Sequence record: MN850651.1
DNA from: Escherichia phage moskry
DNA: 64,000 nucleotides
Reading direction: 5' to 3' (one strand)
Shown here piece by piece: positions 36,185 to 52,373 of this stretch (position 1 is the first letter of the stretch; every line of letters begins with the position of its first letter). A program made the position numbers and the translations under genes. The notes under the pieces were generated by a model that saw only the letters and a program-made list of their open reading frames with translations, did not search any database and was not told where the DNA came from.

Positions 36185-36766
36185 TTATAACAACCCTGTC
36201 AAATCATTCCAATGCTTCCGGCATAATGACACATATCTATCGGTATCACCAATTTCAATTTGACTGCCATCTGTAATTGGAAGTCCGTCTTCCGTGACTC
36301 TAGCTACCATTGTGGCCTTTTTACCACAATGACAGACACCTTTAAGTTCAACAAGCTTATCAGCAATAGCCATTAATGCTTGAGAACCTTCAAATAGATT
36401 ACCTTTAAAATCTGTTCGTAGTCCATATGCCATTACCGGCACATTGTATACGTCAACAATACGACTAAGTTGATACACCTTTTCAGTAGTTAAGAACTGA
36501 GCTTCGTCAACAAATACACAGTGAATATCCTTTTGTGCTGCAGCCCATTTATAGAATTCAAAGATATCCATGTCTTTTGTAATTATATTGGCGTCCTGAC
36601 GAATACCAATACGAGAGACTATTTCACCTTTTGAATCGCGAGTATCAATAGCCGGTTTAAGAACTAATACACCCATGCCACGTTCTTTATAGTTATGTGC
36701 GGCAGTAAGTAATGAAGCAGACTTACCAGCGTTCATAGCGGCATATGTAAAAATTAAACTAGCCAT
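36185..36766 (-). CDS. tk: Thymidine kinase
   Basis: 193 aa; MASLIFTYAAMNAGKSASLL...VCHCGKKA matches T4 Tk. Confidence 0.95.
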   Translation of the reverse strand: MASLIFTYAAMNAGKSASLLTAAHNYKERGMGVLVLKPAIDTRDSKGEIVSRIGIRQDANIITKDMDIFEFYKWAAAQKDIHCVFVDEAQFLTTEKVYQLSRIVDVYNVPVMAYGLRTDFKGNLFEGSQALMAIADKLVELKGVCHCGKKATMVARVTEDGLPITDGSQIEIGDTDRYVSLCRKHWNDLTGLL

Positions 36767-36956
36767 AAGAGTCCTTAGTTAAATTTTCTAAATATGTTTC
36801 CAAATCATTTTCAGCTTTATCGATAGATTTTACTAATTCGTAATATGTTTCGGCATCTCCATAATCAGAAGATAATTCAAAAGACAAATCCTTTTCTAAA
36901 CTAATAATTTCACCAACTAAAAATAATATTTCGTTCTTTTGTTCGCGAGTAATCAT
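36759..36956 (-). CDS. Hypothetical protein
   Basis: 65 aa. Confidence 0.45.
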   Translation of the reverse strand: MITREQKNEILFLVGEIISLEKDLSFELSSDYGDAETYYELVKSIDKAENDLETYLENLTKDSYG

Positions 36957-44020: not shown

Positions 44021-44261
44021 CTCGGTCCCATGATTTGGCCATTAATTCGGACATAAATTCTTCAATGCGCGTTTCTTTAGATGGACTTTCACTATTAGAG
44101 ACCGCAAGTTTGTAATCTGCAATAGGACAGAACATATCAAGGTCCATATTAAGGTCGTCTTTGATTTTTTCTTCTGACACATCTTTATCATATGTGTACA
44201 GATAACTATCACATGATTCTGATTTAATGTAAATTGCTATACTCATCTCAAATTCCTGCAT
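44010..44261 (-). CDS. Hypothetical protein
   Basis: 83 aa. Confidence 0.45.
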   Translation of the reverse strand: MQEFEMSIAIYIKSESCDSYLYTYDKDVSEEKIKDDLNMDLDMFCPIADYKLAVSNSESPSKETRIEEFMSELMAKSWDRDDE

Positions 44262-44734
44262 TCGGTAATAAAACGTTCAACTTCATTATTCTTGGCCTTT
44301 ATCCTGTCTTTACGTTCCTGTAAACTACTTTTAACAAGATTAATAATGATGCCTACAGTACCTCCACCAATTATACCGCCAATTATACTTACGATAGCAG
44401 ATGCTAATAAGATAGCAATAATATCAACAAAACCGAAAGAACTCACCTTAGTACTAAAAAACCACACTGACGGTACAAATATAATCCATCCTGTTATCCA
44501 TTGGCACTTATTGAAAAACTTTTCAAGCTCAGCTTGAGTTGTTCGTATTACTTCATCGATAGGTTGATATCCATTAATGTATCTGTTCACAATAATACCT
44601 GCTGGCTGGTCGATTTTAAATTCTTGGCAAATACGTTTCACTAAGTAGGATGGACATCCTGTCCAATCCACTGAATAGTACGAAATACCTTCATTGCCGT
44701 CGTCAATATTAGACCAATATAGTTTGTTAATCAT
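44243..44734 (-). CDS. Membrane protein
   Basis: 163 aa; Gly/Ile-rich TM segments. Confidence 0.5.
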   Translation of the reverse strand: MINKLYWSNIDDGNEGISYYSVDWTGCPSYLVKRICQEFKIDQPAGIIVNRYINGYQPIDEVIRTTQAELEKFFNKCQWITGWIIFVPSVWFFSTKVSSFGFVDIIAILLASAIVSIIGGIIGGGTVGIIINLVKSSLQERKDRIKAKNNEVERFITECRNLR

Positions 44735-45420
44735 TACCAGCCTTCCATAGGGAATTCTAGATAAACTTGAGCGTTGACACGAATTTCATTGGTAATCTTT
44801 TTAACTCGGTCTGTATTACGAGATACACGTCCGAACCAACGCCATCCATTACTAATTGCACGAGAACCAGTGTGCCATGTTTGCCAATCAAACTGAAGAA
44901 GAGTACGGTCCGGAGCTTCCCATTTCTCTAGTTCACCTTTTTCAATTTTTTCGAGGACTTCTTTGTGCCACTGACGATAGATAAGTTCGCCATCAGGAAT
45001 CTGACTGAACTCTGCAGTTCCTGTTGCAAAATGAGTAGGACACACATCAGCGTTAACAAGACCAAGAATGTGTTCAGACAAATAGCGAGGATTGTCATAG
45101 TCAGGTTGTCCTGCAGTAATAAAGTGTTGACCAACCGGAATATCCGGGCGTGGTACATCGTCATGGTGATAACCTGGGATAGCAGGGTACCAACCGGGCA
45201 TCAGCATGTGGACTCGTGAATCAAATACAACCTGGTCGGTGTTCCAATCATCTGGCAAGTTCATGATGAAGCTGCGAGTAATAGGACCGCCGTTATTATA
45301 AGCAAATTCTAAACTACAGTTGAAGAACATAGGCTCGTTTTTAATCTGGTCGTTTTTAATCGCATGAGCAAAACCACCTACTGCACGAGCTTGACTATTA
45401 AACACTTTAGAACTATTCAT
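44734..45420 (-). CDS. Hypothetical protein
   Basis: 228 aa. Confidence 0.55.
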   Translation of the reverse strand: MNSSKVFNSQARAVGGFAHAIKNDQIKNEPMFFNCSLEFAYNNGGPITRSFIMNLPDDWNTDQVVFDSRVHMLMPGWYPAIPGYHHDDVPRPDIPVGQHFITAGQPDYDNPRYLSEHILGLVNADVCPTHFATGTAEFSQIPDGELIYRQWHKEVLEKIEKGELEKWEAPDRTLLQFDWQTWHTGSRAISNGWRWFGRVSRNTDRVKKITNEIRVNAQVYLEFPMEGW

Positions 45421-45421
45421 A

Positions 45422-45727
45422 TTATTTTCCTCGACATTCTTTAATGAAATTTTCTAGATTGGTAGATTCAATAGCTTTTTTACGAGCTTCTGCGTGTTCT
45501 TCTTCGGACAATTTACGTTTATAATTGACCCAGACATTATGGTCGAAACCAGACGTGGCATATAATAACAAAGCTCCAACGAATAGCAAAAATGGTGATA
45601 AAAATATACAACCAGGAACACCATCCATACTGTAAGCCTTTTGTAATACTGCAACAGAAAGAGTTGCGTAAAAAGGTGATGCAAGTATTGTTAAAAGACC
45701 AATTCGGTTGGTTTCGCCTAATTTCAT
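45422..45727 (-). CDS. Membrane protein
   Basis: 101 aa, two hydrophobic helices. Confidence 0.5.
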   Translation of the reverse strand: MKLGETNRIGLLTILASPFYATLSVAVLQKAYSMDGVPGCIFLSPFLLFVGALLLYATSGFDHNVWVNYKRKLSEEEHAEARKKAIESTNLENFIKECRGK

Positions 45728-46066: not shown

Positions 46067-47023
46067 TTATTTGAAAGGTTTTACCATATGAAAGTTTTGT
46101 TTGAAACGCTTGACGTAATCGTCGTGTCCTAAGCTTTGGTACATACTTACTACTTTGCTATAATTTTCCCAAGCGAACTCACGGAACCATCCTGATGTGA
46201 TTGATGTACAGACCTTTTCAAGGGCCATCATAAAACTATCACGTGGATGGATTTTAAAGTCATTAGGAATCTGAGAACGTTCTAATGCTAGTACACATGA
46301 TTCTTCATATACACCGGCCAATTTGACCATTTCTGGTAATGATTCGAACTTCTCGCGTGAGGTCATGACTTCAGAACCATCTTTCATGTAAAATGTATAC
46401 GCTGGACGGTCTGTTAGTGCAATGGCTTCGTGAATAGTATCATGGTCATATGTATAGATGTCATCTTTAAAGAACGCACTTTTAGAAGTGTCAAGAACAG
46501 GGTGAGCATAGTTCAAAGTTTCTTTTTGGCGTTTCAGCATAATTTCAGTAAGTTCATCGTTCAGTGTAACACCTTTACCACGAAGATACTGAATATGGTT
46601 CATAGTCTTTAAAAAGAATGGATTATTTTTCTTGAAACGATGAGACATCTTAATTGCAAGACATATCTCAGGAGTTGCCCAGTAAAACCCGTTCAAACGG
46701 TCTTTAGACAAATTTTTCTCAGCGTATTTTAAAAGGTCATAAGAAGACGTGAAATCTTCAGGAGTGAGTTCACCGACTAATTCACGGACATTAGTGATTG
46801 CCGGAACAATATATGCTTCAAAATGAGTTTCGCGTCCATTATGGAAGCATTTGAAAACTTGGACATCAGGGTTATCTTGGTGAACATATACACCCATCAT
46901 TTGATTTTTGAATGCATTCCAAGAACCTTGGTCCGCAATAAAGTCCCAATCACTATTTTTAATAGCGCTAGAATCAATAAGACCGTGATAGTGAAGTGCA
47001 CGAGAACCAATAACTAACATCAT
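46067..47023 (-). CDS. Hypothetical protein, possible nucleotidyltransferase-fold N-terminus
   Basis: 318 aa; VIGSRALHYHG...SDWDF weakly resembles the GS...DxD NTase signature. Confidence 0.45.
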   Translation of the reverse strand: MMLVIGSRALHYHGLIDSSAIKNSDWDFIADQGSWNAFKNQMMGVYVHQDNPDVQVFKCFHNGRETHFEAYIVPAITNVRELVGELTPEDFTSSYDLLKYAEKNLSKDRLNGFYWATPEICLAIKMSHRFKKNNPFFLKTMNHIQYLRGKGVTLNDELTEIMLKRQKETLNYAHPVLDTSKSAFFKDDIYTYDHDTIHEAIALTDRPAYTFYMKDGSEVMTSREKFESLPEMVKLAGVYEESCVLALERSQIPNDFKIHPRDSFMMALEKVCTSITSGWFREFAWENYSKVVSMYQSLGHDDYVKRFKQNFHMVKPFK

Positions 47024-47051: not shown

Positions 47052-47303
47052 TTAAATTTCACGACATGCGATATTATATTCATCCCAGAGGTCATCATGT
47101 GAAGCCTCTACCAATGGAACGATTGTACCGTTTATGTCTTCATTATAAGGGCAAATTGTACAGTGCGCATCTTCGAATCGGATGCCTTTGTGTTCAGATT
47201 TTTTATAACGCATATCGAATATCTTTGCAAACTTTTCACGAGTAATGGTTTTACCAACTACTTCGGTTCCGATACTTTCGTAATAAATCATTGTGGACTC
47301 CAT
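47052..47303 (-). CDS. Hypothetical protein
   Basis: 83 aa. Confidence 0.45.
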   Translation of the reverse strand: MESTMIYYESIGTEVVGKTITREKFAKIFDMRYKKSEHKGIRFEDAHCTICPYNEDINGTIVPLVEASHDDLWDEYNIACREI

Positions 47304-47353
47304 TTAATTTGATAGGACTACTATAACATAGCCCTATCTTGTTGTAAACTGTT

Positions 47354-47551
47354 TTAGCAAGAATAACTAGATGATACCCAGCCTTGAACAGTGATACTAT
47401 TGTTGGATAATGAGATCGCGTCCTGGAGATTCAGACCTGCGTTATCTTCAATCCACAATGTAACTTCTTCGCGTTCTTCTGTTGCAATTTGGAACAGGTT
47501 TTCCAGAGCAGCTACTGCCGTACGTACAGCACAATCTAATTCACGAGACAT
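47354..47551 (-). CDS. Small protein, C-terminal WVSSSxxC family member
   Basis: 65 aa ending QGWVSSSYSC. Confidence 0.5.
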   Translation of the reverse strand: MSRELDCAVRTAVAALENLFQIATEEREEVTLWIEDNAGLNLQDAISLSNNSITVQGWVSSSYSC

Positions 47552-47560
47552 ATGATTTCC

Positions 47561-47833
47561 TTAACAAGTGTGAGAAGATGCAACCCAACCGCCATCTTCA
47601 AGGCTCAAGTTGTAGTCGTATTGGTAAACGTCAGCCCATTCAGCATAGCCGTTTTTTGTACAACGTTCAAGATCGGCTTTAAGATGTCCGGGTGAATGAT
47701 AGGTTCCACCCATACCATAAGCTGGATACAAGTCGAATGTTGTGTTTTGTTTATCAGCAATTTCTTTGGCAGCCTCAATAGCTGCATAGATTTTTGCTAC
47801 GGCTTCAGCCAGTTCGGTTTGTTCTTTAGACAT
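47561..47833 (-). CDS. Small protein, C-terminal WVSSSxxC family member
   Basis: 90 aa ending GGWVASSHTC. Confidence 0.5.
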   Translation of the reverse strand: MSKEQTELAEAVAKIYAAIEAAKEIADKQNTTFDLYPAYGMGGTYHSPGHLKADLERCTKNGYAEWADVYQYDYNLSLEDGGWVASSHTC

Positions 47834-47842
47834 AATGATTCC

Positions 47843-48148
47843 TTAGCACAACGCAGAAGACGAAACCCAAGCACCTTCAGTAATAACGTAACCATTACCT
47901 TCACGCTTAACATCGCCACCATTATTTTCAATTTCATCTTTCATCCACTGGGATACGATTTCACCCTTAGGATAATAAGTACGACCGCTACCATAATCAC
48001 CTACAGAAAATGATACGGCATATTGGTCTGCGATCTTTGTTGCTTCTTCTTCGATACGTTCAGCTTGATTCAGAAGTTTATAAATTGCATCTGAAGCGGA
48101 TTTGGCATCATTAAACTCTGGTACTTTAATTTCAATAATCTTACTCAT
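47843..48148 (-). CDS. Small protein, C-terminal WVSSSxxC family member
   Basis: 101 aa ending GAWVSSSALC. Confidence 0.5.
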   Translation of the reverse strand: MSKIIEIKVPEFNDAKSASDAIYKLLNQAERIEEEATKIADQYAVSFSVGDYGSGRTYYPKGEIVSQWMKDEIENNGGDVKREGNGYVITEGAWVSSSALC

Positions 48149-48246
48149 TTTCTACATTCCTTAATAAAGTTTTCGATTGTTTCATTTTCACGTCTAGCTA
48201 GGAGTTCATTATAACTAATCATTTGAGAAGCGTAAACAGCATAAAT

Positions 48247-52198: not shown

Positions 52199-52219
52199 AT
52201 TTTCCTCACTTGAAGTTGG

Positions 52220-52293
<74 letters not shown>

Positions 52294-52299
52294 AATATA

Positions 52300-52373
52300 T
52301 GACCCAGACCAGATTCGAACTGGTAACCTTTCCCTTATGAGGGGACTGCTGCTAACCATTGAGCTACAGGGCC
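52300..52373 (-). tRNA. tRNA-like gene, anticodon CAU (Met or lysidine-Ile type), irregular D-arm
   Basis: T-arm ACCAG-TTCGAAT-CTGGT, anticodon loop CTCATAA, acceptor GGCCCTG/CTGGGTC with one U-U mismatch; D-stem does not pair canonically. Confidence 0.5.

Follow-up and report, generated by a model that had tools for sequence, protein, structure and literature searches.

Small phage proteins with a conserved C-terminal cysteine motif and their linkage to a predicted MenT-like nucleotidyltransferase

Introduction

Why should a phage keep a row of small genes whose products all end in the same way, on a cysteine? This question is raised by a stretch of 64,000 nucleotides from Escherichia phage moskry (sequence record MN850651.1; hereafter the window). 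Three consecutive open reading frames (ORFs) on its minus strand, together spanning positions 47,354 to 48,148, encode proteins of 101, 90 and 65 amino acids (aa) that end in GAWVSSSALC, GGWVASSHTC and QGWVSSSYSC, respectively. The 901 bases around this triplet are 98–99% identical to more than 130 phage records and belong to T4-like Mosigvirus phages of the RB69/PhAPEC2 group. An initial annotation, made from the letters alone, had described the three genes as tandem paralogs, had suggested a shared modification or binding function for the C-terminal Cys, and had regarded the triplet as a local gene-family expansion. The present work examines the small proteins and their relatives, and describes the tie between their genes and that of a nucleotidyltransferase (NTase) located just downstream, a partner that the initial annotation had missed.

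The three proteins and their C-terminal tail

All three genes are read from the minus strand. Paralog 1 (47843..48148; RB69ORF139c type) is an acidic α/β protein of 101 aa with the loop YGSGRTYYPKG and the end AWVSSSALC. Paralog 2 (47561..47833; 90 aa, RB69ORF137c type) has the corresponding loop YGMGGTYHSPG and ends in GWVASSHTC. Paralog 3 (47354..47551; 65 aa, RB69ORF136c type) is a minimal version; it consists of an N-terminal helix and the tail GWVSSSYSC, and lacks the YGxGxTY loop. The tail codons lie at 47846..47869 (W-V-S-S-S-A-L-C, paralog 1), 47564–47587 (paralog 2) and 47357–47380 (paralog 3). In each gene TAA directly follows the Cys codon and overlaps a TAAGGAA Shine–Dalgarno sequence 9 nt ahead of the next ATG. 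The ORFs, their endings and the central segment common to the two larger proteins were thus all found as first described. Of the window's 961 stop-to-stop ORFs with a length of 30 aa or more, these three alone have either a W..S[ST]..C end or W[VIL][SA]SS anywhere, and shuffled windows yielded 0.005 tail-motif ORFs on average.

The tail is also the hallmark of a much larger family. A profile search of 1.84 billion representatives (E ≤ 1e-3) retrieved 195 protein clusters, nearly all of 70–120 aa, in which the alignment reaches the very last residue. A word-based search, by comparison, retrieved few relatives of the 101-aa protein, although an Aeromonas phage homologue among them already ends in W-M-S-S-S-D-Q-C. 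The strict end W-x-[S/A/P]-S-S-x-x-C is present in 133 of 152 representatives, and in 143 when a single additional residue is tolerated; W(−7), S(−4), S(−3) and C(0) never vary within the 133. A YG.G..Y loop with the consensus YGMGGTYYP occurs in 132 of the 152, and is seen in the 101- and 90-aa paralogs of the window but not in the 65-aa one. Representatives have a median length of 87 aa and a median net charge of −8, and in most the terminal Cys is the sole Cys. The bodies of family members diverge to 20–30% identity. Among distinct family ORFs from the loci fetched for the linkage analysis below, 176 of 183 have a Cys end, and the Trp-to-Cys spacing is 7 (n = 147), 5 (n = 20) or 8 (n = 7).

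The most divergent members retain just the N-terminal helix and the tail, as does the 65-aa paralog, and other arrays, too, contain such members with a tail but no loop; the tail can therefore be regarded as the core of the family. As the most conserved feature across at least 195 clusters, the Cys motif at the extreme C-terminus emerges as a conserved functional element: homologues keep it, and the condition set for refuting the initial annotation, a lack of the motif in them, decisively fails. This pattern of conservation is consistent with a tail that serves a shared modification or binding function.

In the AlphaFold2 model of paralog 1 (predicted local distance difference test, pLDDT, 90.8), a long helix (residues 15–43) is followed by strands; W94 lies in the last strand, and S97–C101 form a terminal turn. 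The predicted fold has no match among solved structures, and a profile search of solved structures with the small family returned low-complexity helical matches only. Scans of the three triplet proteins against Pfam, NCBIfam and PADLOC gave nothing above threshold; matches to Peptidase_S78_2 and E217_Gp32 (E ~ 0.01) fell below the gathering scores and were rejected. Among 350 further homologues, neither a precomputed Pfam domain nor a telling name was found. For one homologue (P0211) JGI gives 'regulator of RNase E activity RraB', a lone automated label with no Pfam support, which was not used.

A few variants deserve mention. Tandem fusions occur among the homologues (P0156, and also P0049, P0164, P0199, P0235, L040 and L079). 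In P0156 a complete member ending in GWAASSQSC has another helix-plus-tail unit joined to it in frame, and others contain a W-x-[S/D]-S-G-C-S unit repeated internally in the acidic linker. In the RB69 reference (P0002, RB69ORF139c) the ortholog of paralog 1 is annotated with 71 aa and ends in ...SQWYEK; it looks frameshifted or truncated, with loss of the Cys tail, or reflects a sequencing error. Within the window, a 65-aa ORF by the thymidine kinase gene (36759–36956, minus strand; phrog_653) gives a weak match to the family hidden Markov model (HMM; E = 0.0015) over the helix and the SFELSSDYGDAETYY segment. It has no Cys tail and is either a very distant relative or a chance match.

An old set of paralogs

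Pairwise similarity among the three proteins is modest. BLASTP aligns the 90- and 101-aa proteins over 73 residues with 30% identity (E = 1e-6), the 65- and 101-aa proteins with E = 3e-4, and the 65- and 90-aa proteins with E = 6e-4 in the tail region only. Together with the family HMM, which scores the 101-, 90- and 65-aa proteins at 5e-24, 3e-23 and 2e-4, this supports the proposed paralogy. Paralogs 1 and 2 match phrog_899 (E = 1e-22 and 5e-19) and paralog 3 matches phrog_4882 (E = 1e-36). The 65-aa protein is the weakest member; its membership is supported by the tail, the N-terminal helix and its position in the array.

The idea of a local expansion in an accessory region, in the form first given, is not supported by comparison with other genomes. 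Other T4-like genera have clear orthologs of the 101- and 90-aa types, at 50–64% identity and with the order preserved; those of paralog 2, at 53–61% identity, occupy the same array position. Several T4-like genera share the order of 101-aa type, 90-aa type and short third member, and arrays of one to six members are found in unrelated phages. At the DNA level, the similarity among the triplet genes is limited to a repeat of 25 nt. Recent tandem duplication was rejected in view of this short repeat together with the existence of orthologs of each paralog across genera, and for the same reasons the triplet is best regarded as an old, maintained set.

The nucleotidyltransferase gene

On the same strand, 331 bp beyond the end of the triplet, lies a gene for a 318-aa protein (46067..47023, minus strand). 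Pfam assigns it an N-terminal DUF7277 domain, a Pol-β-type NTase core with the motif IGS...DWD, and a helical DUF7275 domain (E = 1e-27 and 2e-79). Residues G6, S7, D25, D27 and E69 are invariant in 78 homologues and make up a Pol-β nucleotidyltransferase signature; in the DUF7275 domain, too, many of the His, Cys, Lys and Arg positions do not vary. The hhGS...DxD N-terminus is retained in 76 of the 80 viral loci described below. In the predicted structure (pLDDT 92) the closest folds are the M. tuberculosis toxin MenT1 (10.1), the aminoglycoside nucleotidyltransferase ANT(2'') (8.6), MenT3/TglT (8.5), MenT4 (7.8) and LnuA (7.2). From its fold and motifs, the 318-aa partner is thus apparently an active NTase of the MenT/ANT structural class.

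This kinship is one of structure. The 78 homologues showed no membership by sequence in DUF1814/AbiEii or another named family, with only DUF7277 and DUF7275 matched at E ≤ 1, and a profile search of Protein Data Bank sequences with the NTase found no MenT and indeed no match at all. PHROGs lists the NTase as unknown, and a few depositors name it 'putative nucleotidyltransferase'. Its pI of about 6 is uninformative about a nucleic-acid substrate. The 3' end of tRNA is where MenT enzymes add nucleotides, and MenT1 is blocked by MenA1, a helical protein of 68 aa that is encoded upstream (PMC10435456).

Linkage of the two gene families

Is the neighbourhood of triplet and NTase gene accidental? 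Two unrelated metagenomic phage contigs with family members both have DUF7277+DUF7275 just downstream, and in one of them there are five family genes, four of which are consecutive. The association was then examined in both directions.

In the forward direction, 80 viral loci were fetched by NTase alignment, and about 8 kb on each side was translated in six frames and searched with the family HMM. This gave 154 family matches, of which 151 lie on the same strand as the NTase gene and at most 3156 bp upstream of it; the other three lie 170–330 bp downstream, and none is on the opposite strand. Overall, 71 of the 80 loci are family-positive, and when the NTases are clustered at 70% identity, 27 of the 28 clusters are positive. 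The arrays hold one (21 loci), two (26), three (21) or six (3) paralogs. Four of the nine negative loci have divergent tail-bearing ORFs directly upstream of the NTase gene. In the reverse direction, loci were fetched solely via a degenerate DNA pattern for YGMGGTY. Of these, 43 hold a family ORF and 33 were testable, having enough downstream sequence or an NTase already found; in all 33 an NTase gene follows within 1.2 kb on the same strand. Named phages with this adjacency include Pseudomonas phage PE09, Escherichia phages phiWec179, PNJ1809-36 and Schickermooser, Aeromonas phage 60AhydR15PP, and Acinetobacter phage Berthold, the last with three family members. Taken together, it is very probable that the NTase family and the tail family form one functional module.

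Other neighbours do not share this behaviour. An 83-aa gene (47052..47303, minus strand; phrog_3723) that separates triplet and NTase gene in the window served as a control; its homologues occur in 15 of the 80 NTase loci, all of them close T4-likes, and it is a lineage-specific gene outside the conserved module. The 83-, 228- and 202-aa genes and other neighbours, common to close T4-likes only, were accordingly rejected as module parts. The same applies to a tie between NTase and tRNA genes. Of 36 T4-like loci, 28 have tRNA genes near the NTase gene, whereas the number among 44 divergent loci is only 4; the proximity, being confined mostly to T4-like loci, is explained by synteny through descent and was rejected as evidence from context.

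The dependency between the two families is asymmetric, since the NTase occurs without tail proteins while tail proteins were not found without the NTase: no such case was seen among the 33 testable loci of the reverse search. An NTase with intact motif but no tail proteins is present in one CC31-like phage, in a Gordonia phage and in a Streptomyces phage. In Gordonia phage Smoothie (L164, 2856–3809, gp16) IGS...DxD is kept and no tail-family gene lies upstream; instead, gp12 and gp15, a pair of paralogous 77-aa genes, precede the NTase gene, and a tRNA cluster lies downstream. Streptomyces phage Blueeyedbeauty (L165, gp205) likewise keeps IGS...DxD and has no tail-family gene upstream; an RNA ligase is encoded 2 kb upstream.

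Four NTase loci (L050, L052, L055, L074) have no upstream family member. They encode, about 6 kb downstream of the NTase gene and on the opposite strand, a 147-aa protein ending in ...GTYAWCSSSMEC, which may be a relocated, divergent tail protein.

Possible mode of action

How might a MenT-like enzyme and an array of small tailed proteins work together? In the scheme proposed here, the triplet would be the small-protein half of a phage-restricted two-component module, with the NTase at 46067–47023 as the other half. Each small protein would combine an acidic folded domain, in which a long N-terminal helix packs on a small sheet, with an exposed W-x-S-S-x-x-Cys-COOH tail. The NTase would recognise this tail and act on it; the tail would insert into the acceptor site, which in MenT enzymes is filled by the 3' end of tRNA, and the nucleotidyl group would pass to a Ser hydroxyl or, alternatively, to the Cys thiol. 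The paralogs would then be protein substrates or carriers with one common handle for the enzyme, and their divergent bodies would give each its own downstream role in early infection. Of the two parts of this proposal, it is fairly likely that the tail is an element of interaction with the NTase; that the small proteins are covalently modified by it is suggested more tentatively, with the odds somewhat against it, though it is the likeliest of the readings considered.

Covalent modification is favoured, firstly, by the nature of the tail. Its invariant residues are nucleophilic or small (Ser, Ser and terminal Cys) with a single Trp as anchor, and such nucleophiles are not typical interface residues. 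Secondly, one enzyme is associated with several long-diverged paralogs whose bodies are free to diverge. The W-to-C spacing may be 5, 7 or 8 within one array, and such variation among one to six paralogs per enzyme is more readily reconciled with a flexible substrate tail than with a rigid interface. Thirdly, there is a chemical precedent. NTase-fold enzymes transfer nucleoside monophosphates (NMPs) to hydroxyl groups, and in the type VII toxin–antitoxin system MntA–HepT the acceptor is a protein: MntA, a minimal NTase, AMPylates its partner on Tyr, the partner being a HEPN RNase with an RX4-6H motif. The likeness lies in a minimal NTase-fold enzyme that is genetically paired with a small protein, and in the use of a protein hydroxyl as NMP acceptor. 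The systems differ in that the tail proteins have neither a HEPN RNase fold nor a Pfam match, that the proposed acceptor is a Ser/Cys tail rather than Tyr, and that the gene order is reversed.

A second parallel is offered by LysW, with its EDWGE tail, and by ThiS/MoaD, with their GG tail. These too are small acidic proteins whose last residues are the most conserved, and there they serve as the site of enzymatic attachment. They differ from the tail proteins in fold, in tail chemistry and in enzyme class (ATP-grasp or E1-like as opposed to NTase), and no biosynthetic pathway genes are found near the triplet.

Several points weigh against modification of the tail by the NTase. The closest structural relatives of the enzyme are toxins that are neutralised by small antitoxins encoded upstream, as with MenA1 (PMC10435456). 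In the model of paralog 1 the Trp is held within the last β-strand and the last 4–5 residues alone are free, a length that may not suffice to reach an active site. Some homologues carry internal W-x-S-S-G-C-S repeats, and the motif can therefore be non-terminal. In the window, the triplet is separated from the NTase gene by the unrelated 83-aa gene and by a promoter-like site (GTTTACA-N17-TATAGT, 47320..47348, minus strand, a consensus match only) that lies between the triplet and the pair formed by the 83-aa and NTase genes. Finally, the chemistry that would require the two Ser residues as well as a terminal Cys is unspecified.

The first of these points leads to the alternative that survives best, namely that the small proteins are antitoxin-like or regulatory inhibitors whose non-covalent binding to the NTase blocks its activity or sets its timing, just as MenT1 is blocked by MenA1. 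The tail would then plug the acceptor site, with the Trp stacking like a base and Ser, Cys and the carboxylate at the metal site, and the true substrate of the NTase would be tRNA or RNA 3' ends. The structural kinship of the NTase to toxins of toxin–antitoxin systems and the gene order, with the small partner upstream, both speak for this idea. Like the enzyme of the MenAT1/AbiE systems, the NTase has a Pol-β NTase fold with GS...DxD motifs. The comparison also brings out differences: the enzyme there is a DUF1814 protein and here DUF7277 plus DUF7275, without DUF1814/AbiEii membership by sequence; a single partner there is replaced by one to six paralogous ones here; and the partners here are predicted folded α/β proteins with the invariant W-x-S-S-x-x-Cys end, which MenA proteins lack. 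MenAT1/AbiE is found as a chromosomal or plasmid toxin–antitoxin locus of bacteria, whereas the present module is virtually absent from bacterial genomes and resides in lytic phages, where addiction makes little sense. A toxin–antitoxin pair has no need of up to six long-diverged paralogs per enzyme with conserved orthologs, and the NTase persists, catalytic motif intact, without a tail protein in CC31-like phages and actinophages. Inhibition is consequently considered unlikely, though it deserves to be taken seriously.

If the tail merely docks, the small proteins could instead be adaptors or specificity factors, whose variable bodies bring different host proteins or RNAs to the NTase for nucleotidylation. 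A conserved handle on divergent bodies, the maintenance of several paralogs per enzyme, and the fact that the small proteins were never found without the enzyme would all be accommodated. A docking handle, however, should not require an invariant Ser-Ser and a Cys as the very last residue; in minimal members, for example the 65-aa paralog, hardly any body remains for binding, and no candidate targets are known. This makes an adaptor role distinctly unlikely. The notion that the small proteins are independent early effectors (DNA or RNA mimics, or anti-defence decoys against AbiE/MenT-type toxins of the host) with a tail destined for a host target or metal site, linked to the NTase through shared regulation or descent, draws on their being acidic small early-region proteins, as is typical of host-takeover and anti-defence genes, and on accessory neighbours such as NADAR, Nudix and nicotinamide phosphoribosyltransferase (NAMPT) in metagenomic loci, but is improbable in view of a two-way linkage across very divergent phages with no other neighbour conserved, and of a strand and order fixed in 151 of 154 matches, which are hard to explain without a direct functional tie.

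Should the small proteins indeed be substrates, what would the product be? A speculative answer, which rests on analogy and is itself rather doubtful, is that the MenT-like NTase nucleotidylates the Ser-Ser-x-x-Cys tails, to give either a stable protein–NMP or protein–oligonucleotide conjugate, or an activated tail in which Ser elimination leads to a Cys thioether ring of the lanthionine or aminovinylcysteine (AviCys) kind at the very C-terminus; the modified effectors would serve early takeover or counter-defence. In epidermin, a C-terminal S-x-x-C forms AviCys, and the Ser at −3 from the terminal Cys has the same spacing as in the tail family. Arrays of ribosomally synthesised and post-translationally modified peptides such as lanthipeptides also share with the present arrays the arrangement of tandem precursor paralogs with one invariant segment and a single enzyme; the invariant residues here are Ser, Ser and Cys. 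On the other hand, the tail proteins are confidently predicted domains of 65–100 aa rather than leader–core peptides, the genes reside in a lytic phage, and there is no protease or exporter. No homologues of LanB, LanM, LanKC, LanL, LanC or LanD were found by Pfam in the NTase or its neighbours.

Genomic context

The triplet is located in a variable region, with the e lysozyme and nudE genes on one side and tRNA genes on the other. Two of the latter, tRNA-Arg(tct) and tRNA-Met(cat) (52217–52373, minus strand), lie about 4 kb upstream of the triplet, a proximity to the module that is conserved among T4-likes only. Paralog 1 is preceded by a T4-early-type promoter-like site, GTTTACG-N17-TATAAT (48208..48236, minus strand), which is a consensus match only (10/12); no late-promoter TATAAATA was found near the triplet. 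The early-type site falls inside the remnant of a gene. Compared with PhAPEC2, a T4 e.3-like membrane-protein gene (119 aa) is mostly gone, and its last 33 codons (...ENFIKECRK; 48145–48246, minus strand) directly follow the stop of an e.4-like gene. The ending of this remnant belongs to a second conserved C-terminal motif, (E)NFIxECRxK, which the remnant shares with two neighbours, a 101-aa ORF (45422–45727) and an e.2-like ORF (44243–44785), all on the minus strand. The CC31-like locus L027 has the similar ends FITECRGK, FISRCRIKR and FINDCRKARK.

The gene ipIII and other internal-protein genes are also nearby. T4 internal head proteins carry an N-terminal capsid-targeting sequence of the MKTYQEFIAE type, which is cleaved by the prohead protease. 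By eye, the N-termini of the triplet proteins (MSKIIEIK, MSKEQTEL and MSRELDCA) are unlike it and instead form the start of the conserved helix region; the tail family is also present in non-T4 phages. With regard to metagenomic loci, one contig (L005, 3255–5801; the contig of P0211) carries an adjacent pair, a fusion of nicotinamide mononucleotide adenylyltransferase with Nudix and a NAMPT-type enzyme, that resembles phage NAD+ reconstitution pairs.

Distribution and significance

The module is essentially confined to phages. A survey with one genome per species, covering 185,579 bacterial and archaeal species, yielded five contigs only; all come from metagenome-assembled genomes, and four have tail proteins upstream. 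Every other occurrence is on a phage or viral contig. By comparison, 734 phage records and over 2,200 protein clusters contain the NTase; for the tail family the numbers are at least 486 records and at least 195 clusters. The carriers range over T4-like, rV5-like, phiPsa374-like and jumbo phages with Escherichia, Klebsiella, Aeromonas, Pseudomonas and Acinetobacter as hosts, and include many candidates for therapeutic use.

The window proteins are bona fide members of phrog_899, phrog_4882, phrog_2141 and DUF7277/DUF7275. These entries are of 'unknown function', and neither the tail motif nor the array structure is recorded in them, nor is the linkage of the two families. A literature search (RB69ORF139c, RB69ORF134c, DUF7275) found nothing relevant on either family, and both halves of the module are annotated as 'hypothetical'. 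There is thus no earlier description of the small-protein fold, of the tail motif or of the array architecture; the related known kind is an NTase with small partner proteins.

The module could turn out to involve a protein modification of a new kind, or to be a relative of the MenT/AbiE toxin systems carried by phages, and in both cases would extend knowledge of host takeover by phages and of NTase biochemistry. It would also give a function to a block of genes in the 'hyperplastic region' of T4-like phages.

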